A stretch of DNA of 33,838 nucleotides, taken from contig WAPT01000012.1 of NCBI GenBank assembly GCA_015520605.1, positions 1 through 33,838 of the forward strand. Reading direction: 5' to 3'. Positions 13,743-26,158 of the stretch are shown here, piece after piece. Position 1 is the stretch's first letter, and every line of letters starts with the position of its first letter. The translations under genes were made by a program, and so were the position numbers. The notes beneath the pieces are model-generated. The model worked only from the letters and a program-made list of their open reading frames with translations. It was not told the origin of the DNA and made no database searches. This DNA comes from Nanobdellati archaeon (lineage in GTDB: Archaea > EX4484-52 > WAPT01).

Positions 13743-14666
13743 CTACACAGTACTAAACTCTATTATTTTTCTTTGCTTAATTTTATCTAACACATTTCTG
13801 ATTCTATCGTTAGCTATCCTGAGATAGTCAGGATTAATCTCATATCCCACAAAGTTTCTTCTGGTGAGTATTGCTGCTACTGCTGTGGTTCCAGAACCCA
13901 TAAATGGGTCTAACACCACTTCTCCTACAAAAGTGTAGAGCTTTATACATCTATACGGTAACTCTACAGGAAATGGTGCGGGATGACCAACTCTTTTCGC
14001 GGATTCTGGTGGAAATATCCACACACTCTTTGTGAATTCTAGGAACTCCTCTCTACTCAGATCGCTCTCTCGTTCTAAAGGATTGTCTCTTCTCATTTTC
14101 TTCTTGGAAAATACTAGAATATACTCATGCACATCTCTAAGGATAGGGTTTGATGGTGATTTCCAACTCCCCCATGCTGTAGAGCCTGCGGCACCGTTCT
14201 TGTACCAAATGATCTCACCCCTCATAGCAAACCCGATATTTTCTATCAACATCTTAGCAAGATAAGCATGAAGTGGTATATATGGCTTTCTGCCTAAATT
14301 TGCTATGTTAAGACAAAACCTTCCTCCAGGAACAAGAACGCGGTACACTTCTCTAAACACTCTTTTCAAGAATTCAAGATATTCATTAAAAGACAAATCT
14401 TCATCGTATTCTTTCCCAACATTGTATGGGGGCGATGTAACAACAAGATGAACAGAATTGTCGGGTAATTCTTCCATTTTTTCAGAAGATTTTAAGAATA
14501 TTCTATTGAGATGCTTTTGCGGTATCTGGTTTTCTATATATCTCTCATCTTCATCTATATTGATGGGAAAATCCTTATATAGGTTTCTGGAGTAAAACGG
14601 AGATGAGTCATGGGAATATCTACCTGAAACTCCGAATTCAGATGTAAGTGTTTTTTTAGTTTTCAT
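13743..14666 (-). CDS. Site-specific DNA methyltransferase, beta class (likely N4-cytosine)
   Basis: Motif IV VTSPPY precedes motif I VLDPFMGSGTT; HPAPFP; TAWGSW. SPPY is typical of m4C enzymes. Start at ATG 14666 after GAGGTG. Confidence 0.92.
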   Translation of the reverse strand: MKTKKTLTSEFGVSGRYSHDSSPFYSRNLYKDFPINIDEDERYIENQIPQKHLNRIFLKSSEKMEELPDNSVHLVVTSPPYNVGKEYDEDLSFNEYLEFLKRVFREVYRVLVPGGRFCLNIANLGRKPYIPLHAYLAKMLIENIGFAMRGEIIWYKNGAAGSTAWGSWKSPSNPILRDVHEYILVFSKKKMRRDNPLERESDLSREEFLEFTKSVWIFPPESAKRVGHPAPFPVELPYRCIKLYTFVGEVVLDPFMGSGTTAVAAILTRRNFVGYEINPDYLRIANDRIRNVLDKIKQRKIIEFSTV

Positions 14667-15570
14667 TTTCGACACCTCTAAGCAGTTTTAAGAATTTTAT
14701 AGCCTTGGATTCGTATGTTTTTTCTCTATTAGCTATTTCTATGATTTTACCAAGTGTGATTTTATCTAGCATAGCGCTAAAGAAAACTCTCTCCTCTTTT
14801 AAGTGTTCAAGAATTATGTTTTCTAATTCCTTATAAGAGTCCATCCTGACAAATCCGCCATTTGGTGTGGATTTTATATTGAGAACATCGTTTTCATCAT
14901 CGGAGGGTTTAGTGTTAACGGAGATAAATCCCTGTATGATTCCGTACTGTTTTAAATGATCGACTTTCTTATAGTAATTTCTCGTGATTGGAGTGTTCCC
15001 AACAACAAAAATCGGTATTTTGGATGCGTTTAAACTTGCGACTCTTATATTAATGCTTTTACCGATAGCTTTTAGCATAGTATCGGATCTCAATAAACTT
15101 GGATTACCGGTGTGAGTATGGAAGTCTCCTATCCTCTTCAAGATCACATCACCGTCCTTTCCTATAAGTTCCCAATTCCACACGACAGACATCTTTATTT
15201 CGAATATCATCACTATATTCTCAGCTTTCTGTAACTTCCCTTCCTCTTTACAAATAACAACATCCGCAGGAGAGTTTTTTGTGAGTTCTAATTCCTCACA
15301 CACAACACCAGTTTCTACAAAACACCCTATCTTTTTGGCTATGGGTTCAATCAGTTTAGAGAACCATTTCTCGGTATATGCTCCAATGTAAGCATTCCTG
15401 CTTTGGAGTGTGGTTTTTGGTCCCTTATAAGATTTTGGATAATAGGCAACAAACTTTTCTATATTTTCCTCTACCTTTATTCTATAGAATAAGGTCTCTG
15501 GAGGCACGTAGGGTAGAAAAGATCTGAAAAATTTTTCCTCTTCTGATGGTTGCCAAAGTGCAGAGGACAT
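14656..15570 (-). CDS. Putative type II restriction endonuclease (PD-(D/E)xK)
   Basis: E...SPADVVIC...FEIK catalytic-like pattern. 3' end overlaps the MTase start; shares its AT-rich composition. Confidence 0.7.
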   Translation of the reverse strand: MSSALWQPSEEEKFFRSFLPYVPPETLFYRIKVEENIEKFVAYYPKSYKGPKTTLQSRNAYIGAYTEKWFSKLIEPIAKKIGCFVETGVVCEELELTKNSPADVVICKEEGKLQKAENIVMIFEIKMSVVWNWELIGKDGDVILKRIGDFHTHTGNPSLLRSDTMLKAIGKSINIRVASLNASKIPIFVVGNTPITRNYYKKVDHLKQYGIIQGFISVNTKPSDDENDVLNIKSTPNGGFVRMDSYKELENIILEHLKEERVFFSAMLDKITLGKIIEIANREKTYESKAIKFLKLLRGVENEN

Positions 15571-16041: not shown

Positions 16042-17388
16042 TCAATCTTTCATATTCTTAATCCCTTTCTTGATTCTTATCGGTTCCCGCACCCTGATTT
16101 TAGTTCCATCCTTGCTTCCGTTTTTAGCTGGAAGAACATTTTTCTTCACATCTTTAGCCCTTTCCATCTCCTTCCCCATTAAGTACTGCAGGTGGGTGAG
16201 AACCTTCATTATCCCTTCAAAGGCCTCATGCGGCGTGCCGTACGGACTGAAGTACTTGTGCACGTCTCCGTCACTCCAGTGCTTGGTGCAGCAATAATAA
16301 AGATGGTCGGAAGTCTGGAGGTACCTCCACAACCTCCTCGCAGCAGGGACGTCACACTCTCTCAGCTTTCTTCCTATCTTTTCAAGTTCTCTGAATGCCA
16401 CTCTCTGCATCTCATTGCCCAACCATGCTGAGAGATCGCGCTCCATATCCGCCCACGAGATTGTCTGCCATCCCGGCACGTCAATCACACCTCTGGGGGG
16501 GTACCTTTCAACGGCTTCACTTACAGTTACGAAGTCCACATGCTCGTATTTGAGCAGCTCATACGGCAGGTACTTGAGGAACTCGAAGATACCTGTATCT
16601 TCCCACTGGTGCTCTCCAAAGGTCTCGTAGTCCATGAAAAGATTTATGACCTCTCCTTGGCAAGCGGCTATCCATGCCGCGTATTTATCAGCGGTCAGAG
16701 GCCATGCCTCAAACCATCTTGCTGAGAAGCGGAAACTTACATCATCGCTCAGCCTGTAGTGTCTCAACAGAACGGGAATGTTTGTCCCGTAACTCACATA
16801 CACATGCTCGGGACTTCTCCCGTTAAGTACAAATTCTGTACCTTCTGCAAGCATAGCTTTAAAGCCCATCTCCTCAATCTTCTTTGCGATCTGGTTGTTG
16901 AATATTAATTCTGTGTTCCTGAAGGCCCTCGGTTTGTAACCTATCTCATCCTTTATCAGTTCCAAATGCATCCTGACCTGCTCCTCAAACTCATTCTCCA
17001 GTCCATTATCGATCCACAGGCTGGAAAGGCTATGATGGTACGTCTCAGCAAGGAACTCCACGCAGCCCGTGTCAGCGAGCCATCTGAAAAGATCAACGAT
17101 CTCCGGAACGTACCGCTTTGCTTGCTCGAGAAAGACCCCGGACAGGCTGTATGTCACCTTAAACTTTTTTTTCTGCCCTCTGTAATTGTCAACCAGCGAT
17201 AGTATCAGCTTTGTTGCAGGGATGTAGCACTTCTCTGCAACTTTTTTCATTATTTTTTCGTTTGTGGCGTCATCAAATACACATTTTTCAAACTCCTCAA
17301 AGCTATCTATTCCTCTCAAATTTATCTTCCACCCGGGTTTCAGTCTTCTGGGCTGGTGTACCTCAAAGTAAAAGCATACCGATACCAT
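16042..17388 (-). CDS. Glycoside hydrolase family 57, alpha-amylase-like
   Basis: FEVHQP, ETYHHS, FRNTELI (nucleophile Glu), FMDYETFGEHQW (acid/base Asp), LQTSDH. Start 17388 after GGAGGT. Confidence 0.93.
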   Translation of the reverse strand: MVSVCFYFEVHQPRRLKPGWKINLRGIDSFEEFEKCVFDDATNEKIMKKVAEKCYIPATKLILSLVDNYRGQKKKFKVTYSLSGVFLEQAKRYVPEIVDLFRWLADTGCVEFLAETYHHSLSSLWIDNGLENEFEEQVRMHLELIKDEIGYKPRAFRNTELIFNNQIAKKIEEMGFKAMLAEGTEFVLNGRSPEHVYVSYGTNIPVLLRHYRLSDDVSFRFSARWFEAWPLTADKYAAWIAACQGEVINLFMDYETFGEHQWEDTGIFEFLKYLPYELLKYEHVDFVTVSEAVERYPPRGVIDVPGWQTISWADMERDLSAWLGNEMQRVAFRELEKIGRKLRECDVPAARRLWRYLQTSDHLYYCCTKHWSDGDVHKYFSPYGTPHEAFEGIMKVLTHLQYLMGKEMERAKDVKKNVLPAKNGSKDGTKIRVREPIRIKKGIKNMKD

Positions 17389-17459
17389 AAACAATACCTC
17401 CGAGTTCTGAAGTTTCTTTTTTATCTCCTTCTCTTTCCAGCAGTCTTGGTTTTTGATCT

Positions 17460-18728
17460 TTAATCAATTCCCACGATCGGCATATCCATCCTGCCAAAAA
17501 TCTCGGGTCTTGGTTTCCATGTGACTTTCTCGTACTCCTTAAGCACTCTCTCATAGATCTTTCTGGTCAGCTTCGCAGCGTTGTCCCATGAGTACTTCTC
17601 CTTTACGGTGGAGTAAGCGTTCTCCACCATCCTCATAATCTTCTCTCTGTTGTTCTCATCCAACACATATTTAACACCCCACGCAAGCGACTCAGAGTTC
17701 TCCACCCACACTTTTATACCCGTTTTCTCGTGCTCCACTATCTCGCTCAAGCCTCCTGTGTCAGCCACCACCACCGGCGTTCTTGCTGCCATGGCTTCAA
17801 GCGCAACTATGCCAAAAGGCTCATAACGGGAGGGAACAACGATGACATCGGCAATTTTCATCAGCTTTTTGAGCGTGTCGTCATCAACATAGCCCGTGAA
17901 GAGCACCTTGCCCTCCGGGACGTTTTGCTTTGCCAACGATTCGCAGTGCTGTCTGTGGTAACCATCTCCCGTAACAACGAACTTGGCTTCAGGGTGCTTC
18001 TCAAGTATCATGGGCACAGCCCCCATCAAAATGTCCAGCCCCTTCTCCCAGACATGTCTGCCAACAAAAAGCACTATCTTCTCATGAGGCAAGGCAAACC
18101 TATTCTTGAACTCTTGTTCGTTAAACTGAAGGGAGTCAAATTCAGCTGTTTCAACACCGTTCGGCACAACATCGATCTTATCCTCGGGTGTTGCGAAGGT
18201 GCTGACAACGCTGTACTTCATAAAGTTGGAGCAGCAGATCACCCTCCAAGCTTCAAAGACCAATTTCCCTTCAAGATCATGAATAAGTACCTGTCTGTCA
18301 CCCCTTATCCCACCATACCTTCCACTCTCAAGGGCATGGATGGTGGCTATGAGCGGTACACGGTAAATGTGTTTTAGTGCAACTGCAGTCGTGGTTGAAA
18401 GCCAGTCATGAGCGTGAATGATACTGACTCTATTCTCTCGGAAAATCCCTGCAGCCTCTATCTGCAGAAGCATGTTCATCTGAAGCACCCAAGAAAAGAA
18501 GTCTTCGGCGGGAATGTTATCCGCGTTGATCCGATACACCACAACACCGTCTTTTTCTTCCTTTCCGTAATTGCCTTCAAAACCACACGTGAGAACTATG
18601 GGTTCCATTCCTGCTTTTGCCTGAGCTCTTGTAAGGTGGTAAACATGCGTACCCAGCCCACCGACCTTGAACGGCGGGAACTCCCAGCTGATATGAAGCA
18701 CGGTTATTTTTCTATCATCTCTCTCCAT
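17460..18728 (-). CDS. Glycosyltransferase family 4 (GT-B)
   Basis: WEFPP..VGGLG, HAHDW, FVGR...EKG, PSRYEPFGIVALEAMA. Confidence 0.93.
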   Translation of the reverse strand: MERDDRKITVLHISWEFPPFKVGGLGTHVYHLTRAQAKAGMEPIVLTCGFEGNYGKEEKDGVVVYRINADNIPAEDFFSWVLQMNMLLQIEAAGIFRENRVSIIHAHDWLSTTTAVALKHIYRVPLIATIHALESGRYGGIRGDRQVLIHDLEGKLVFEAWRVICCSNFMKYSVVSTFATPEDKIDVVPNGVETAEFDSLQFNEQEFKNRFALPHEKIVLFVGRHVWEKGLDILMGAVPMILEKHPEAKFVVTGDGYHRQHCESLAKQNVPEGKVLFTGYVDDDTLKKLMKIADVIVVPSRYEPFGIVALEAMAARTPVVVADTGGLSEIVEHEKTGIKVWVENSESLAWGVKYVLDENNREKIMRMVENAYSTVKEKYSWDNAAKLTRKIYERVLKEYEKVTWKPRPEIFGRMDMPIVGID

Positions 18729-19426
18729 TGTCTCACCACCCAGGTATAGTTCCTTATTATCTTCTTATCAAATTCCTTATCCTCAGGGTTAAGCACATTT
18801 ACCTTTTCCGGAGGCGTGCTGTAGTGAATGTGGAGCAAGTTCTTAAGCCAGTCCTGATTCACAAAGATGCGCTTTGATTCATAACTCGCCATCCACTCTA
18901 TTTGCTTAACCGCTTCCGTATACCCGTTGCAGACGCCCGGAGTTCTTATGTGTTCAATTGAATAATAATTCACAAGGAGGGGCTTTCTGAGCGCTGCCTG
19001 CAGGTGTATTCCTGCCGGAAAGCTCAGCCATTCATGAGCGTGGATCAAATCTATGTTGCCTTCTTCGTGAAATATGTCTGCAATTACTCTGCTGACCTCC
19101 ATGGACAGCGTGAGAGTCCATGTTAAGGGGGAGTATGCCCTTACGGGATTGGTAACGTAGTGAACCGTAAAGCCTCCGAAATCCTCCCTCTGTCCTGCTT
19201 TCCACGGATCGTACGAAATTACGTGGGTGTTCACACCCCTCGTGGCGAGGTGCTGTGCGATCTCCTTTGTGGTGTAAGATACTTCGTTGCTCATGCGCGG
19301 AAAGAAATCTGGAGTGATGAGCACGACAGTCTTGGGCTTTTTAGAGTACTCTATGTCTCTCTCATCGATACCTAACCTCTTTATTATTTTTTCGGCTATC
19401 CTCTGGCTGAGAAGCTGATCGACCAT
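18704..19426 (-). CDS. Stand-alone GT4 N-terminal domain protein (no nucleotide-sugar-binding domain)
   Basis: DLIHAHEW and TPPEKVNV are collinear with HAHDW and TPEDKIDV of the neighbouring GT4. No GR..EKG or EPFG..E. Has its own RBS (GGGTG). Confidence 0.8.
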   Translation of the reverse strand: MVDQLLSQRIAEKIIKRLGIDERDIEYSKKPKTVVLITPDFFPRMSNEVSYTTKEIAQHLATRGVNTHVISYDPWKAGQREDFGGFTVHYVTNPVRAYSPLTWTLTLSMEVSRVIADIFHEEGNIDLIHAHEWLSFPAGIHLQAALRKPLLVNYYSIEHIRTPGVCNGYTEAVKQIEWMASYESKRIFVNQDWLKNLLHIHYSTPPEKVNVLNPEDKEFDKKIIRNYTWVVRQWREMIEK

Positions 19427-19499: not shown

Positions 19500-21347
19500 T
19501 TAATCTTTCATCGACCTTTCAACGGCCAGATTGTGCGCTTTTATATAGTTCCACCCGAGCACACCCCAGTCAAAATGCCTCGAAAGCTCAGCAGCATAAT
19601 GTTTACGTCTCCCCATCCTCTCGCGGGTCATCTTAAGCAAGCTGTAAATATGTGCTGCCAGCTCTTCCTCAACCTCATCATCACTCCTTCCCCTCCTCCT
19701 CAGTACGATCACACCACTTTCATTTTTCTGGTTATCTTTGACAAGCTTCATGACCGCCCTTCCGAATCCAGAAAGGTCGGTGGTGATTGCTACAGCCCAG
19801 AGGGCGGCGGTCTCAAGTGGAGTATACCCCCACGGTTCGTAGTAAGATGGAAAGACACCCACGCTGCACCCAAGCACGACGGACTTGTAGTCCATACCCA
19901 TAAGCCTGTCGGTTATGGATAGGTACGCAGGATAGAAAATGACCTTGATTTTGTCCTCCTTCCTGTTGAGAAGTCCCTCGCGCTTGAGAGCTGTGAGTAT
20001 CGCATCCTGACCCTCATCATAACTGAGCATGAAGGGGGTTAGTGGAGCTATACTGTCGCTTCTCGACTGGAAGCAGATGGAGAGCTTTCTCAGCTGTAGC
20101 AACTCCTCCTCGGTGAATAATTCTTTCATGCGTGAAGTCATATCCTGACATCTTCTGTTCGTTATGAGATCCATTATTCTATCATCGAACTTTCTCAGGA
20201 TCTCCTCAACATAGTCCTTTATACCCCTGTAAAGAGATATGTTCTCAAGCACGTCCTGTCTCTCTTCCCTCACACCGGATGGTACGAGTATGAATGCGAA
20301 GTAGTCCGTACGGCACCCCTCCGCTTTTAGCATTCTGTTGACCTTACCCAGAGCTTTTATGAAAATATCTACTCCCTTATTCCTGAACTCGTATCTGCCG
20401 GAGATGAATATGAACCGTGTGTCCTTCGTGTTTATCTCGTAATACGGGCTGAAGTATCCCCTTACAAAATCGATAAGTTTCCGCTTATTTATAATGTGAA
20501 GGAAATTTGCATCTTCTCTTGAGGGAAAATTCCTCATATCAAGCCCGTTCGGAAGCACGAGGTCGGGTTTCCTCCCGAGAATATATAGACATTCCTCGGC
20601 CATAACATCGGAGACGGTTGTGAAGACTGTTGCCAACTCAGCGCACTTCTTTTCAGTCTGGTGCTTTGCCTCCACCCAGAACCTGTAAGCGAGGCTTTCA
20701 TCAACCCTCCCGTTCTCCTTCAGGCCCTGCTCCACCATTTCGTGGAAGTTTGGCAGGTGGTGTGCCAGAGTCCTCCCGAGCATCGTTGCATGGGTTGTGA
20801 AGACAACGGGAGCATCTATTTTTTTCATCCTGAGGTAGAGTAGTGTACCGCCGCTGAGCCATTCGTGAAGGTGAAGGGCAATATAGCATCTTTCCTTATT
20901 CCTGATGTTGCTCAGGATCTTTTCTATCAGCATGCCGCATGCATAGCTCCACATGAGGGGTTCTTCGTAATCCCAGCCTGCTCTTATGGAGTCTATGCCG
21001 TACAGCTCCCAGAACATACCCTTCACAGAATTCTTTATGTCCAGCACGGGCCGGAAGTCCACAAGGATGGTATAAGGATTGCCCGTTATCCTCCACCTTC
21101 CGAATTTGCACGGAATGCCGGCGGAATTCATTTCATCTATGGCCCTCTGCAGGAACTCATGAGGACAGTGCATTTCATCGAACTCCATCCGCGCTTTCTC
21201 CTCGTAGTATGGGCCGATAGTAATGTAGTTTTCACCGTAAACATCCTGCATGAAAGGAGCTTTTGACGCTATAACGGTGTGAATGCCACCTATCTTGTTG
21301 CACACTTCATAGGAAACTTCAAAGACAAAATCTGCCTTTTTTTCCAT
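19500..21347 (-). CDS. Glycogen synthase, GT3 (animal/fungal-type) family
   Basis: FEVSYEVCNKIGGIHTVI, HEWLSG, FTTHATMLGR, FTTVS, GRYEFRNKG, FPSYYEPWGYTPLE are GT3 hallmark motifs. Confidence 0.93.
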   Translation of the reverse strand: MEKKADFVFEVSYEVCNKIGGIHTVIASKAPFMQDVYGENYITIGPYYEEKARMEFDEMHCPHEFLQRAIDEMNSAGIPCKFGRWRITGNPYTILVDFRPVLDIKNSVKGMFWELYGIDSIRAGWDYEEPLMWSYACGMLIEKILSNIRNKERCYIALHLHEWLSGGTLLYLRMKKIDAPVVFTTHATMLGRTLAHHLPNFHEMVEQGLKENGRVDESLAYRFWVEAKHQTEKKCAELATVFTTVSDVMAEECLYILGRKPDLVLPNGLDMRNFPSREDANFLHIINKRKLIDFVRGYFSPYYEINTKDTRFIFISGRYEFRNKGVDIFIKALGKVNRMLKAEGCRTDYFAFILVPSGVREERQDVLENISLYRGIKDYVEEILRKFDDRIMDLITNRRCQDMTSRMKELFTEEELLQLRKLSICFQSRSDSIAPLTPFMLSYDEGQDAILTALKREGLLNRKEDKIKVIFYPAYLSITDRLMGMDYKSVVLGCSVGVFPSYYEPWGYTPLETAALWAVAITTDLSGFGRAVMKLVKDNQKNESGVIVLRRRGRSDDEVEEELAAHIYSLLKMTRERMGRRKHYAAELSRHFDWGVLGWNYIKAHNLAVERSMKD

Positions 21348-21480: not shown

Positions 21481-23562
21481 ATGATGCCACATTTCGTGAT
21501 AAAAGACGAGAGAATTAATGATGTTTTCTACTCACTCTCTGGCAGAAAACTGTTTCTTTACAGGGCGGCCAACAACGGTTTCGTGAACAAGTGGTGCGGG
21601 ATATGGAAACCTCCTTTCAAATTCTACGAATATTTCGCCTTCAGGATCAACGGCGAGTGGCTTTCTCCCCAGAACGTAACCTCACTCAAGTACGCTTATT
21701 ATTTTGCAGCACATAGGTATGAACTGAAATCAAGCGGGAATGCGGATCTGAACGTTACCGAGATTCTGTTCATCCCGAAAGATAAAAGCGCTCTTGTGAC
21801 TCTTCTGAGGCTCGAGAATCTCTCGGGAGAGGAAAAAGAAGTTGAGGTCATGTTGGAAGCGGCCGTAAACATCAGGAGGAAGCAGGAGGAATTCAACCTG
21901 CGGCAGTATGAAAGCACCGTGGAGCAAAAAAGGAAATGTGTACTCGTAAAGTCCGAGGATGATCTGTATGCTTGCTTCGGTACGGATTTTGCTGAAGAGG
22001 CTCTGGAAATAGACCATAATATTATTAACTTCTACAAGGAGCACTACCCTTCTGGAGAGTTCCAAAAATGCTTCATTCCCGTGAATTATTTCGTGAGGAT
22101 GATACTGGCTCCCGGCGAGGTGTACTATTTACCATTCGCGTTTTCAGCCGGGTTTACCAAGAAAGAAGCTATCGATTCTTTTGATGAGAGCATTGCGAAA
22201 TGGCGCGATCTACTTAAGGAAAAAGTGAAACACACTTTAAATTTGCTGGAGAAGAATGTTTTCCTTACTAACGACGAGAGTTTAAACACTCTTTTCAAGA
22301 TCTCGATTTTGAATATAGATTCTTTCATCTATGAGCAGAACGATGAGAATGTTTATTTGGTATCGGGGCTTCCTTGGTTTATCGAAGCTTGGGGCAGGGA
22401 CAATATGTTCTCAGTGCTATCTTTGTTGACTCTCGGAATGGAAAAGGAAGCTGAGCGAGTGCTTCAATTTTTCGCAAGACACACAAAAAACCGTGTGCCA
22501 TGTGTCGTTGTTCCCGAGAAACATAAGATTGATGTGAGTTACCACGGCGCTGATGTCAGCCCTCTGTTCTTGCTTGTTGCAGATGAGTACGAGAAAACTT
22601 GTGGAAAACCTCTTCCAGAAGTCTCACGGGTTGAGAAAAAGGTGATGGCAGGTCTTGAGCTTGAAGACGACCTTGTTTTTCATAAAGGCAACGAGACATG
22701 GATGGATACCCTGATTCGTGGTCCGACCGCTGTAGAAATACAAGGACTATGGATGATTGCACTTAAAAAGAGAGATAAAAAGCTGTACGAGAGGGTGCGC
22801 GCAAGGTTCGTTAGACCGTTCTGGAATAATGATTTTATGTATCCCTTCGATTCCTTTGGAAGGGTTGTGGACGCATCCGTAACCCCAAACTGCCTTATTC
22901 CCGCGCTTTTTGGTGTGTATGAAAGACACGAACTTAAGGCAATCATTCGTAAAATGAAGGAAGTTCTGGAAAGCGATTTTGGAATAAGAACTCTTTCCAA
23001 GGTTGATGTTAAGTACCAGCCGGACAGCTACCACAGGGGTAGTGTGTGGGGGTTCACAACACTGCTCGGTGCAGCCGCATGTTTCAGAAGTGGAGATTAT
23101 CATCACGGAATCATCCTTATGAGAAAACTGTTGCACGATGTTAACCGTGACCACATAGGCTTTGTGGGCGAGACATGGAATGCGGAAAGTAGCCAGTTAA
23201 TTGGAGCCTCAGCACAGTTATGGAGTACTTCACTAATTCCGTTTATAATAGACCGATACCTTATAGGATTAGATGTTGATAACAACCACATCACGTTCCG
23301 CATAACTTTTCCTCCGGGAGTGAGGTTCATTAGAAGAAAAAATGCAAGAATAGCAGGTGTGGGTGTCGATCTGGTCGCGGTTAAGCTCAAAAACACATAC
23401 TGGGTTGAGCTTTCGTTCTCATCTTTACCTCCTCTAAAATGCAGGCTAGTGGTGCCTGAAAATGTGAAAATAATCAGCGTGAATGATAAGGTCTATGAAG
23501 GTAATGTTGCACTCTTCAAACCCCGAAAAAAGAACGTTATCAAATGTTTTCTCAAATGCTAA
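21481..23562 (+). CDS. Amylo-alpha-1,6-glucosidase (glycogen debranching enzyme, GDE_C/GH133-like)
   Basis: GLPWF..WGRD, TWMDT, AVEIQGLW, GIRTLS, YHRGSVW, QLWS. TATATAAG at 21451-21458. Confidence 0.88.
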   Translation: MMPHFVIKDERINDVFYSLSGRKLFLYRAANNGFVNKWCGIWKPPFKFYEYFAFRINGEWLSPQNVTSLKYAYYFAAHRYELKSSGNADLNVTEILFIPKDKSALVTLLRLENLSGEEKEVEVMLEAAVNIRRKQEEFNLRQYESTVEQKRKCVLVKSEDDLYACFGTDFAEEALEIDHNIINFYKEHYPSGEFQKCFIPVNYFVRMILAPGEVYYLPFAFSAGFTKKEAIDSFDESIAKWRDLLKEKVKHTLNLLEKNVFLTNDESLNTLFKISILNIDSFIYEQNDENVYLVSGLPWFIEAWGRDNMFSVLSLLTLGMEKEAERVLQFFARHTKNRVPCVVVPEKHKIDVSYHGADVSPLFLLVADEYEKTCGKPLPEVSRVEKKVMAGLELEDDLVFHKGNETWMDTLIRGPTAVEIQGLWMIALKKRDKKLYERVRARFVRPFWNNDFMYPFDSFGRVVDASVTPNCLIPALFGVYERHELKAIIRKMKEVLESDFGIRTLSKVDVKYQPDSYHRGSVWGFTTLLGAAACFRSGDYHHGIILMRKLLHDVNRDHIGFVGETWNAESSQLIGASAQLWSTSLIPFIIDRYLIGLDVDNNHITFRITFPPGVRFIRRKNARIAGVGVDLVAVKLKNTYWVELSFSSLPPLKCRLVVPENVKIISVNDKVYEGNVALFKPRKKNVIKCFLKC

Positions 23563-23574
23563 GGAGGTGGTGAT

Positions 23575-24672
23575 ATGAGGGTAACACTATCTGTGATAAA
23601 AGCGGATGTGGGTGGACTGGTCGGGCACTCACGCGTGCACTACACCCTTATGGAAAAAGCAAGGAAGATACTGGAAGGGAAAAAGAAAGAGGGACTAATA
23701 CTCGATTACAGAGTTATGGCATGCGGTGACGATCTGCAGCTGATCATGACACATACGAGGTTCATTGAAGACGAGGAAATACACAGAACCGCGTGGGAGA
23801 CTTTTCTCGCCGCCACAGAGGTTGCAAAACAGAAAAAGTTATACGGAGCGGGACAGGATCTCCTCAAGGACACGTTCAGCGGAAATATAAAGGGTATGGG
23901 ACCTGGATTCGCGGAGATGTGCTTTGAGGAAAGACCGTCAGAACCCGTGATCGTGTTCATGGCCGATAAGACCGAGCCGGGGGCATGGAACCTTCCGCTG
24001 TTCAGGATGTTCGCGGATCCGTTCAACACAGCAGGGCTTGTGATAGACCCGAAAATGCACGATGGCTTTGTTTTTGAGGTTCACGATGTCATAGAACACA
24101 GGAAAATAAAGTTGAGAACTCCTGAAGAAACATACGACCTGCTTGCACTGATAGGCCAGCCCGGAAGATACGTCATTAAGTCAGTATTCAGAAAGAGCGA
24201 CGGAGAGATCGCAGCCGTCACATCAACTCAGAGATTGAATATAATGGCGGGAAGGTACGTGGGCAAAGACGATCCAGTTATGATAGTCAGGTGTCAGAGC
24301 GGTTTCCCCGCTGTTGGTGAGGTGCTTGAGCCCTTTGCATTTCCGCACCTTGTTGCCGGATGGATGAGGGGAAGTCACCACGGCCCGCTGATGCCCGTCG
24401 GCTTTACAAACGCACACCCAACAAGGTTTGATGGACCACCGAGAGTTATATCTGCGGGATTCCAGCTTTGCAACGGATTGCTTGACGGTCCGATAGACAT
24501 GTTCGATGACCCAGCATTCGACAGAGCGAGAGAAATGGCAAATAGGATAGCTGACTACATAAGAAGGCACGGGCCCTTTGAGCCGCACAGGTTGAGCGCT
24601 GACGAGATGGAGTACACCACACTGCCCCATGTGCTCGAGAAGTTCAAGGACAGGTTCGAGAAACTGGAGTGA
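23575..24672 (+). CDS. fbp: Fructose-1,6-bisphosphate aldolase/phosphatase (class V)
   Basis: IKADVGG..GH, GDD, LYGAGQDLL, DKTEPGAWN, GRYVGKDDP (Tyr and Schiff-base Lys retained), GWMRGSH, MEYTT. RBS GGAGGTG. Confidence 0.98.
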   Translation: MRVTLSVIKADVGGLVGHSRVHYTLMEKARKILEGKKKEGLILDYRVMACGDDLQLIMTHTRFIEDEEIHRTAWETFLAATEVAKQKKLYGAGQDLLKDTFSGNIKGMGPGFAEMCFEERPSEPVIVFMADKTEPGAWNLPLFRMFADPFNTAGLVIDPKMHDGFVFEVHDVIEHRKIKLRTPEETYDLLALIGQPGRYVIKSVFRKSDGEIAAVTSTQRLNIMAGRYVGKDDPVMIVRCQSGFPAVGEVLEPFAFPHLVAGWMRGSHHGPLMPVGFTNAHPTRFDGPPRVISAGFQLCNGLLDGPIDMFDDPAFDRAREMANRIADYIRRHGPFEPHRLSADEMEYTTLPHVLEKFKDRFEKLE

Positions 24673-24790: not shown

Positions 24791-26158
24791 ATGAAGACTT
24801 TACCCTCAATTTTCAAAGCATACGATATCAGGGGAGTTTATCCCAATGAGCTGAATGAGGAGATTGCATATAAGGTGGGAAACATCTTTGCTCAGTTTTT
24901 GAACGCGAAGGAACTCGGGGTTATAGGGGATTATCGTGTCAGCACGCCGGCTCTCAAAAAAAAGCTTGTAGAAGGTATGGTGGATGCAGGGAGCGACGTC
25001 ATAGATTTGGGGCACGGGCCAACCCCGCTCATGTATTTCAGCGTGGTTAAGCTCAACATCGATGGCGGTGTTGCCGTTACGGCAAGCCACAATCCTCCTG
25101 AATACAATGGATTCAAGCTGACCAGAGAGAAGGCAATACCAGTATATGCCGAGAATGGAATTTACGAGATCGGGAGGATGGTGGTTGATGACAGAGTAAA
25201 AAGAGCAGAAAAGAAAGGCAACATTCAGCAAAAGAACATGGTGGAGGAGTACGTGAAAGATGTGGTTTCAAGGATAAGCCTCGGGAGAACGCTGAATGTT
25301 ATAGTGGATACGGGCAACGGAGCTTGTGCGGACATTCCGGAAAAGATACTGAAGGCTCTCGGATGTAAGGTTAAGACAATTTTTAAAGAGCCGAACGGAG
25401 AGTTTCCGAACCATATAGCGGATCCGCTCAAAGTTGAGACGCTGAAATGGCTGCAGGAGGAAGTTGTGAGGGAAAATGCGGATCTGGGTATAGCGTTTGA
25501 CGGGGACGGAGACAGAGTGGGACTCGTGGATGAAAGAGGTAATGTGGTCTCGCAAGATCACATACTGATGATGCTGGTGAAGCAGGCTCTCGAGCGCAGG
25601 AAGGGTTATGTTGTGTTTGAGGTGAGAACATCCAGAGCTGTGATCAATTTTGCTGAAGAGCTTGGCGGTAAGCCGATCATAACGAGAGTGGGCCACGCGT
25701 ACATAGTTGATGAGATAATGAAACGCGATGCCGTATTTGGCGGGGAACTTTCTGGACATATCTATCTGCCTTACTGCTATTATCCGTTTGACGATGGAAT
25801 TTTTGCGGCGATGAAGCTGGTGGAGTTCGTGAGCAATATTGATGAGCCACTTTCGAAGTTTGTGGAAAAGCTGCCAGTGCCAATAACCACTCCGGAAATA
25901 CACATTAAAGTAAAGGAGGAGAACAAGTGGAAGATCATGGACGCCTTCAGAGAGGAGCTTGAGAAAAGAGCTTACAATATCAACACCCTTGATGGAGTGA
26001 GGGTGGATTTCGAAGACGGTTGGGGTATAGTAAGGCCATCAAACACCGAGCCCATGATAAAGTGCAGGTTTGAAGCCGAAAGCGAGGAGGCTCTGGAAAG
26101 AATAAAAGACAACATTATGAGCATTCTTGAAGATGTTATTAAAAAGTTTGAAGGATGA
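24791..26158 (+). CDS. Phosphomannomutase/phosphoglucomutase
   Basis: FKAYDIRG, TASHNP (phospho-Ser), FDGDGDR, GELSGH, RPSNTEP. RBS GGAGGTG. Confidence 0.96.
   Translation: MKTLPSIFKAYDIRGVYPNELNEEIAYKVGNIFAQFLNAKELGVIGDYRVSTPALKKKLVEGMVDAGSDVIDLGHGPTPLMYFSVVKLNIDGGVAVTASHNPPEYNGFKLTREKAIPVYAENGIYEIGRMVVDDRVKRAEKKGNIQQKNMVEEYVKDVVSRISLGRTLNVIVDTGNGACADIPEKILKALGCKVKTIFKEPNGEFPNHIADPLKVETLKWLQEEVVRENADLGIAFDGDGDRVGLVDERGNVVSQDHILMMLVKQALERRKGYVVFEVRTSRAVINFAEELGGKPIITRVGHAYIVDEIMKRDAVFGGELSGHIYLPYCYYPFDDGIFAAMKLVEFVSNIDEPLSKFVEKLPVPITTPEIHIKVKEENKWKIMDAFREELEKRAYNINTLDGVRVDFEDGWGIVRPSNTEPMIKCRFEAESEEALERIKDNIMSILEDVIKKFEG

Follow-up and report, generated by a model that had tools for sequence, protein, structure and literature searches.

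The window analyzed here is a 33,838-nucleotide stretch of archaeal DNA (contig WAPT01000012.1, assembly GCA_015520605.1, Nanobdellati archaeon), and the subject is a gene of 240 codons on its minus strand that lies directly upstream of a full-length glycosyltransferase (GT) of family GT4. Its product, referred to as the half-GT, has the N-domain of a GT4 enzyme and a C-terminal helix. It is probably an old, mostly archaeal N-domain-only paralogue that acts as a fixed, noncatalytic partner subunit of the adjacent GT4. An earlier reading of the window, made from its letters alone (the original prediction), had proposed an old and selected noncatalytic subunit, acceptor-binding or regulatory, rather than a decaying fragment. 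The subunit role is supported by synteny, co-occurrence and a heterodimer with the GT4 that is predicted by modeling.

Architecture of the half-GT

The gene, its predicted partner and the parts of its product are:

18704..19426, minus strand: half-GT gene, 240 aa; GT4-type N-domain plus terminal helix, without donor domain [open reading frame (ORF), Pfam, hhalign, ratio of nonsynonymous to synonymous substitution rates (dN/dS), model]
17460..18728, minus strand: full-length GT4, predicted partner, 422 aa; PF13439 and PF00534
19435..19440, minus strand: AGGGTG, Shine-Dalgarno-like, 8 nt before the half-GT ATG; read from the sequence, no statistics
19337..19426, minus strand: half-GT residues 1-30, N-terminal helix (2-17) and linker; alignments A1 and A2; predicted local distance difference test (pLDDT) 50-78
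18785..19336, minus strand: half-GT residues 31-214, Rossmann-type N-domain of the GT-B fold; carries W133, R161 and E177 and the helices of the predicted dimer (94-123, 137-147, 167-175)
18710..18772, minus strand: half-GT residues 219-239, C-terminal helix with the invariant Y227; pLDDT 87-93; structural matches, sequence similarity weak

As originally predicted, the frame is intact, a putative ribosome-binding site of its own precedes it, and its stop overlaps the start of the GT4 gene by 25 bp (18704-18728). In this genus the half-GT gene lies downstream of a GT3-type glycogen synthase homologue, with a gap of 73 bp between the two.

Pfam assigns only N-domain models to the half-GT [PF13439 at 8.1e-16 over residues 51-212, PF13579 and PF13477], and neither of the models for the nucleotide-sugar-binding donor (C) domain with its E-x7-E region, Glycos_transf_1 (PF00534) and PF13692, matches it. 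The chain ends 25 residues past the last N-domain strand. No NCBIfam model reaches its cut-off on the protein. Identity to the N-domain of the adjacent GT4 is 23% (E 1e-14), and when the profile of 43 halves is compared with that of 25 neighbor GT4s (hhalign), half residues 28-215 correspond to GT4 residues 4-191 with an E of 3.7e-45, SWEFPPFKVGGLG standing opposite TPDFFPRMSNEVS. This alignment runs from the first strand and stops exactly at KVNVLNP / KIDVVPNG, which agrees with the earlier claim that the donor domain has been excised.

In complete GT4 enzymes the glycine-rich loop after strand 1 (GGL/GGV) has a functional role. This GG loop is gone in the half-GT, in which RMSNEVS stands opposite FKVGGLG of the GT4, and so is a conserved His (NYYSIEHIR opposite TIHALESGR). 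Both losses had been noted in the original prediction, and both hold for the window's clade. They do not extend to the whole family: judged by the aligned motifs, they are specific to this clade because distant members retain WEYPPR..G, with one Gly, and T.HS.E.HR. Four residues are invariant in all 43 halves: W133, R161, E177 and Y227. The first three align with W109, R137 and E153, which are also invariant in the GT4, and sit in loops that presumably face the interdomain cleft.

The final model of the half-GT was built from the 43-sequence alignment and replaced an AlphaFold2 (AF2) model from 15 sequences (pLDDT 73). It has a pLDDT of 90.6, and residues 219-239 form an unbroken helix at pLDDT 87-93. 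Since a profile search of the PDB with the 15-sequence alignment A1 gave nothing at E 0.01, fold comparison was used instead. The best matches align approximately 180-200 residues, from the first residue through the C-terminal helix of full-length GT-B enzymes. Among them, chain 3c4q_B of MshA aligns from 1 to 409 with residues 32..234 of the model [198 residues aligned, root mean square deviation (rmsd) 2.4, Z 24.9], and the other whole GT-B matches include GlgM (Z 23.8), SPS (Z 23.6) and the Pyrococcus abyssi glycogen synthase (Z 20.9). An engineered SPS construct consisting of N-domain and C-helix (6ldq_A) aligns over 182/187 residues (Z 21.0, rmsd 2.8). On the model, there is good support for helix 219-239 as the structural equivalent of the GT-B terminal helix, which packs back on the N-domain. 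Hence, the claim that the terminal helix has been retained stands by structure and not by sequence, where the match is not significant. A comparison restricted to the tail sets Y227 of the half opposite the invariant Y392 of the GT4, and a comparison of the tail with the whole GT4 profile picks another site, again without significance (E 0.076).

A further feature is the additional N-terminal helix (residues 1-30). It occurs only in the clade of ~240-285 aa proteins, is missing from relatives of ~200-220 aa, and contains I14, which is invariant in A1.

Judged by its domain content, the half-GT catalyzes nothing by itself, as originally proposed, being without a donor domain. A protein with only half of the GT-B fold could in principle be the N-half of a split enzyme, in the style of Alg14/Alg13, or a decaying fragment. 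The window's genome (0.86 Mb, 27 contigs, 90.7% complete) has no C-domain-only gene; 6/6 PF00534 matches lie in frames of 381-615 aa, which argues against a split enzyme. Decay is at odds with the selection on the gene, the stop-free state of its orthologues and their single clade across several phyla, all described below. Both forms of this explanation are largely refuted and have very little probability left.

Selection, age and distribution

Substitution rates were obtained with our own Nei-Gojobori script for six genes of the cluster, in comparison with a genome of the same genus (G002). The half-GT has the lowest dN/dS of the six, 0.029, vs 0.031 for the aldolase/phosphatase, 0.076 for GT3, 0.085 for both GT4 and GDE, and 0.106 for GH57. 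Against a second genome (G001), for which synonymous sites are saturated, the dN of the half (0.094) is the lowest of five glycogen-cluster genes, and that of the aldolase/phosphatase is 0.076. The proposal that the gene is under selection is borne out by these values.

The order to which the window belongs was surveyed in 41 genomes from eight families, the window's own genome included. A half-size orthologue is present in 35 of them. Thirty-four of these orthologues are stop-free open frames of 203-286 aa, and the remaining copy (G031) is broken into two pieces at the ends of contigs. No close relative among the 41 genomes has a full-length gene at this position, and the gene is thus neither a decaying copy nor the result of a recent deletion, in keeping with the original prediction.

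Related proteins at ~50% identity have Candidatus Aenigmarchaeota given as their source. When 1.84 billion cluster representatives were searched with a profile, 1182 matches were obtained at E <= 0.001, of which the top 21 are all 99-255 aa long; the first full-length GT4 comes at rank 22. The wider half family has a length of ~200-255 aa and occurs in Bathyarchaeia and other archaea, with named members in Bathyarchaeota, Nitrososphaerota and Calditenuaceae, and 592 loci for the half or the GH57-half-GT4 set were confirmed when species-representative genomes were scanned. Homologues of ~240 aa limited to the GT4 N-domain, a search for which had been suggested together with the original prediction, are accordingly found across the order, in Bathyarchaeia and in other archaea. 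Matches of intermediate length (241-317 aa) were considered as other forms of the half and rejected, as they are singletons or fragments, several of them clustered with proteins of ~390 aa.

To address the age of the family, 81 rows were placed in a quick maximum-likelihood tree. They comprise 43 halves, 25 neighbor GT4s, 10 other full-length GT4s and an outgroup of three further GT4s from the window's genome (a fourth one, encoded on contig C12, was omitted). The neighbor and other full-length GT4s were trimmed to their first 205 aa. All 43 halves, which come from the window's order, Bathyarchaeia, Nitrososphaerota, Conexivisphaerales and Undinarchaeota, fall in one clade with a Shimodaira-Hasegawa-like approximate likelihood ratio test (SH-aLRT) value of 99, apart from the clade of the neighbor GT4 N-domains. 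The latter contains 24 of the 25 neighbor GT4s (SH-aLRT 92), and its internal branching parallels that of the halves. The tree points to one ancient event of duplication and truncation, after which the two genes were inherited or transferred together, and the gene is old, as had been claimed.

N-domain-only proteins also turn up in bacteria. Protein-atlas leads with a score of 0.91 comprise clusters of ~185-219 aa GT4-like proteins limited to the N-domain in Verrucomicrobiota, Bacteroidota and Bacillota. Moreover, passages of a 2024 review describe a GlgA-GT5 "fragment" that is conserved in Bacteroidetes, which also have GT3 (PMC11046441). These bacterial clusters and the Bacteroidetes fragment could be a parallel case.

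Linkage to and co-occurrence with the GT4

The wider locus statistics rest on the best 80 of the 592 confirmed loci, nearly all of which have Bathyarchaeia or Bathyarchaeota in their titles. In 78 of these best 80 loci, the half gene immediately precedes a full-length GT4 gene on the same strand. As to the two exceptions, one contig ends 87 bp past the half, and in the other the match is itself a full-length GT4. A GH57 gene is found within 1.5 kb upstream of the pair in 63 of the 78 loci. Within the window's order, the half is followed by a GT4 on the same strand in 17/20 loci. The half stop and the GT4 start overlap by 4 bp in locus L035 and by 25 bp in the window. Across the 41 genomes of the order, 34 have both genes, six have neither, and the GT4 is never found without the half.

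One Bathyarchaeota locus (L101:5992-7842, plus strand) has half and GT4 in a single open frame of 631 aa. It was not used as evidence of a natural fusion, as the tail helix of the half is swapped there for unrelated residues; an indel or an assembly error is more likely than a fusion allele.

The original prediction had also framed the gene as lying between GT3 and GT4, and this framing did not hold. The adjacency of GT3 to the half varies within the order, and GT3 occurs without the pair in two genomes (G018 and G037, 81% and 68% complete). In five of five Bathyarchaeia genomes with the GH57 / half / GT4 set, PF05693 (GT3) has no match and the best match to PF08323 is the neighbor GT4 itself; in these genomes neither GT3 nor a strong GT5 was found. 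Because these genomes have the pair and no GT3, GT3 is not the general partner of the half, and the partner is most likely the adjacent GT4.

These counts bear on another idea, in which the half-GT would serve the upstream GT3 synthase as an adaptor or primer protein and take the place of glycogenin. Glycogenin is a self-glucosylating primer of family GT8 with a GT-A fold; the half-GT has a GT-B N-domain fold and no Pfam match to a GT8 domain. The N-terminal helix of the ~240-285 aa clade might be thought to serve such a role, and the half does lie 73 bp downstream of GT3 in this genus. The helix, however, does not follow GT3 adjacency, as a short form that lacks it (G005) stands directly beside GT3. 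According to passages of the 2024 review, archaeal GT3 enzymes are uncharacterized and a glycogenin homologue has not been found in DPANN archaea (PMC11046441), which counts in favor of this idea. Given the Bathyarchaeia genomes without GT3 and the variable adjacency in the order, a GT3 adaptor is nevertheless a quite improbable explanation.

Predicted complex and its alternatives

Prediction of the complex combined the GT4 (25-row alignment) with the half (43-row alignment) in three runs, accompanied by three controls. The ipSAE between half and GT4 is 0.89, 0.90 and 0.90, vs 0.00 for the best of the three controls; partner pLDDT is 86, and at least 83% of the contacts are common to the runs. 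The ipSAE mark is passed by 116/157 solved complexes and 2/215 mismatched pairs, and is a rough guide here since own alignments were used. The predicted interface is formed by homologous helices, 72-96, 112-123 and 144-155 of the GT4 and 94-123, 137-147 and 167-175 of the half. Mapped through the hhalign alignment, it pairs homologous positions, resulting in a pseudo-two-fold N-domain dimer. The C-terminal tail of the GT4 (405-412) also contacts the half in the predicted complex, and a W-K-P tail at the GT4 C-terminus is present in 23/23 half-associated GT4s and in 0/2 others (alignment A5, whose rows are cut at tblastn ends). On the half, the interface is somewhat more conserved than the remainder [0.57 vs 0.49, p 0.026; in A1 0.78 vs 0.69, p 0.018].

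Several observations weigh against a fixed GT4 subunit. The predicted interface copies that of solved GT4 homodimers, and because such similar homodimers have been solved, the high score may reflect likeness rather than binding. Nor does the ipSAE score separate the heterodimer from half:half or GT4:GT4 homodimers. The GT4 side of the interface is no more conserved than the remainder of that protein (0.55 vs 0.62, p 0.95), and the tail of the half does not match the GT4 terminal helix significantly by sequence (restricted hhalign E 0.015). As to the genomic evidence, the co-occurrence counts overstate the support, related genomes not being independent samples, and one genome (G021, 57% complete) has the half with no GT4 found. 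In one family of the order (L026, L027 and L028; 3/20 loci) the half gene is away from the GT4 gene, which is on a different contig in two of these genomes and was not found in the third (G021); in L028 the half follows an ftsZ homologue (PF00091, 7.5e-42).

Some of these points fit a stand-alone glucan- or sugar-binding protein of the same pathway, either a monomer or a homodimer through the same helices, that would not be a stable GT4 subunit. In addition to the family in which the two genes do not adjoin, such a protein would account for the invariant cleft-face residues W133, R161 and E177 that half and GT4 have in common, and a same-helix homodimer is sterically as plausible as the heterodimer, solved GT4 enzymes forming homodimers of this kind. 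On the other hand, a stand-alone binder would not lead one to expect adjacency in 78/80 and 17/20 loci with overlapping stops and starts, 0/41 genomes with the GT4 and no half, or the predicted heterodimer, which scores 0.90 against 0.00 for the controls and in which the GT4 C-terminal tail contacts the half. We consider this explanation unlikely.

The predicted interface, which is the one that homologous enzymes use in their homodimers, raises the possibility of a negative regulator or decoy, which would cap the dimer interface of the GT4 and thereby block an active homodimer or titrate the enzyme. A constitutive subunit is the better fit to a constant gene pair that has overlaps of the translational-coupling type, co-occurs strictly and shows the strongest purifying selection in the cluster, and a decoy appears distinctly unlikely. 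The reading that we prefer is a half-GT that forms a predicted heterodimer with the adjacent GT4 through the interface described above.

The GT4 partner and the gene neighborhood

The top PDB sequence matches of the GT4 are the P. abyssi glycogen synthase (1e-23) and GlgM (2.3e-22), and its top NCBIfam match is glgA_Coryne at 153 bits, below the cut-off of 302. Full-length relatives (P0050, P0054, P0055, P0070 and P0089) are fused to GH57 plus BE_C, to DUF4912 with or without BE_C, or to NUDIX. Such fusions suggest that this GT4 subfamily has been given different helpers in different lineages. Because of these PDB relatives, the NCBIfam match and the domain fusions, the GT4 is likely an alpha-1,4-glucosyltransferase. 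A GT4-like TPS of Sulfolobus acidocaldarius was considered as a related case and proved unrelated to the half-GTs (PMC7688234). A term search of a Petrotoga GH57 paper returned nothing on GT4 context (PMC6629080).

The window contains a glycogen-type gene island, with GH57, GT4, half-GT and GT3 on the minus strand and GDE_C, aldolase/phosphatase and phosphoglucomutase on the plus strand. Its other members are:

16042..17394, minus strand: GH57 glycoside hydrolase, 450 aa; PF03065 at 4.8e-83; third gene of the conserved GH57 / half-GT / GT4 set
19500..21347, minus strand: GT3-type glycogen synthase homologue, 615 aa; PF05693 at 3.2e-135; upstream neighbor in this genus
21481..23562, plus strand: amylo-alpha-1,6-glucosidase (GDE_C) homologue; PF06202 at 8.2e-23; divergently transcribed
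23575..24672, plus strand: fructose-1,6-bisphosphate aldolase/phosphatase ORF; named by eye from the sequence, no family search
24791..26158, plus strand: phosphoglucomutase-family gene; four PGM_PMM domains

For the GH57 protein, neither a sequence search of the PDB at 1e-5 nor NCBIfam gave a match, and a BE_C domain was found neither in this protein nor in the GH57 of locus L035. With no BE_C domain and no such PDB match, the label of branching enzyme was not adopted. From their sequences, the aldolase/phosphatase and phosphoglucomutase genes would tie gluconeogenesis to the glucan genes in this 0.86-Mb genome. Beside the island, at 13743-15570 on the minus strand, lie an N6/N4 DNA methylase gene (PF01555, 3.5e-53) and, upstream of it with an overlap of 20 bp, an ORF of 304 aa on which a Pfam scan gave no match; the two may be a restriction-modification pair. 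The sequencing runs listed as containing the sequence comprise eight of DNA, from three studies, one of which may be its source, and none of RNA.

Proposed mechanism and significance

In the mechanism that we propose, one ancestral GT4 glucosyltransferase would have been duplicated and one copy would have lost its whole nucleotide-sugar (C) domain, retaining the N-domain along with the C-terminal helix by which the fold of that domain is completed. The N-domains of half and GT4 would then pair via three equivalent helices each, as in a GlgM-type six-helix bundle, so that the half would stand in for a second catalytic protomer in a heterodimer with one active site. The face of the half that would be turned toward the missing C-domain keeps the invariant HAHEW motif, R161 and E177. 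Because the C-domain is missing while these residues remain, this freed face might hold an acceptor, a growing alpha-glucan or another protein of the cluster. The half may thus act by holding an acceptor, by stabilization or by regulation. We infer both the binding of a ligand on this face and an alpha-1,4-glucan as the product of the GT4.

A more far-reaching form of this scenario can be considered, in which the GT4/half heterodimer is an archaeal glucan-initiation machine. The GT4 would make the first short alpha-1,4 chains de novo while the half holds the nascent primer on its free cleft face, and GT3 would take over the primer in DPANN archaea; in Bathyarchaeia the pair alone would be the glycogen synthase. 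This extension is speculative and, in our estimate, rather unlikely. If it were true, it would account for the priming of prokaryotic GT3 glycogen synthases in the absence of glycogenin.

Pairs of an active enzyme and an inactive paralogue are already known. What appears to be undescribed is a natural GT-B enzyme cut down to its acceptor domain and closing helix and strongly selected beside its full-length sister in several archaeal phyla: no paper describing the half protein was found in the full-text literature, a scope outside which most subscription journals fall, and in neither Pfam nor NCBIfam was a curated family found for it. Moreover, the half-GT bears on two open points in passages of the 2024 review, the role of GT4 in archaeal glycogen clusters, which carries question marks there, and the start of GT3 chains without glycogenin (PMC11046441). 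There is also a consequence for annotation. Databases name the halves "glycosyltransferase", "glycogen(starch) synthase" or "hypothetical protein", and since a half annotated as a glycosyltransferase is counted as one, the numbers of active glycosyltransferases in these genomes are inflated. For acceptor-binding studies, the family provides a natural and stable GT-B N-domain.

Comparison with known systems

The closest structural counterparts of the half are GlgM (alpha-maltose-1-phosphate synthase, GT4, 6tvp) and MshA (GT4, 3c48/3c4q), both of which share with it the fold of N-domain and terminal helix [Z 23.8 and 24.9; rmsd 2.4, 186-198 residues aligned]. The GlgM homodimer is a six-helix bundle, as stated in a passage of the 2024 review (PMC11046441), and like the predicted half/GT4 dimer it uses three N-domain helices per chain. 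GlgM and MshA, however, are complete two-domain homodimeric enzymes, whereas a paralogue is the predicted partner of the half, which lacks the donor domain. The construct 6ldq, in which residues 27-220 of the Thermosynechococcus SPS are joined to residues 406-426, has the same architecture as the half in that the N-domain passes directly into the terminal helix. It was, however, made in the laboratory, is 12% identical and plays no partner role.

The genomic setting has a counterpart in mycobacteria. According to part of one report, the GT4 alpha-1,4-glucosyltransferase Rv3032 is encoded beside Rv3031, a putative branching enzyme (PMC2674218). This arrangement is like the window's locus in placing a glucan-elongating GT4 beside a putative branching gene, if Rv3031 is counted with GH57, and differs in that the product of the Rv3032 cluster is methylglucose lipopolysaccharide. 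To our knowledge, there is no half-GT in the Rv3032 cluster, though no search for one was made.

As to function, a GT-B homologue without enzymatic activity is found in plants. Arabidopsis STARCH SYNTHASE 5 (SS5) is described, in parts of two papers, as a nonenzymatic glucan synthase homologue in starch granule initiation (PMC10801857, PMC11809589), and it is reported to bind the coiled-coil protein MRC. The half, in its predicted role, would likewise be a nonenzymatic homologue alongside active glucan machinery. SS5 belongs to the plant GT5 lineage and is larger, and the comparison made here is at the level of the shared GT-B fold. SS5 reportedly lacks the C-terminal GT1 subdomain.

Two further systems join an enzyme with a noncatalytic or half-size companion. 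In the streptococcal O-GlcNAc transferase complex GtfA-GtfB, a GT4 enzyme is joined by GtfB, an inactive GT-B paralogue that, unlike the half, has both domains. Alg14 resembles an N-half and has a second polypeptide, Alg13, as its partner; this separate catalytic C-half completes it, and the window's genome has no such C-half. Set beside a complete GT4, the half-GT has the N-domain and is without donor domain and GG loop. It forms a paralogue clade of the neighbor GT4 and thus derives from an active family, while lacking the domain needed to catalyze. By analogy, the half-GT functionally resembles inactive paralogue subunits such as SS5 and GtfB.

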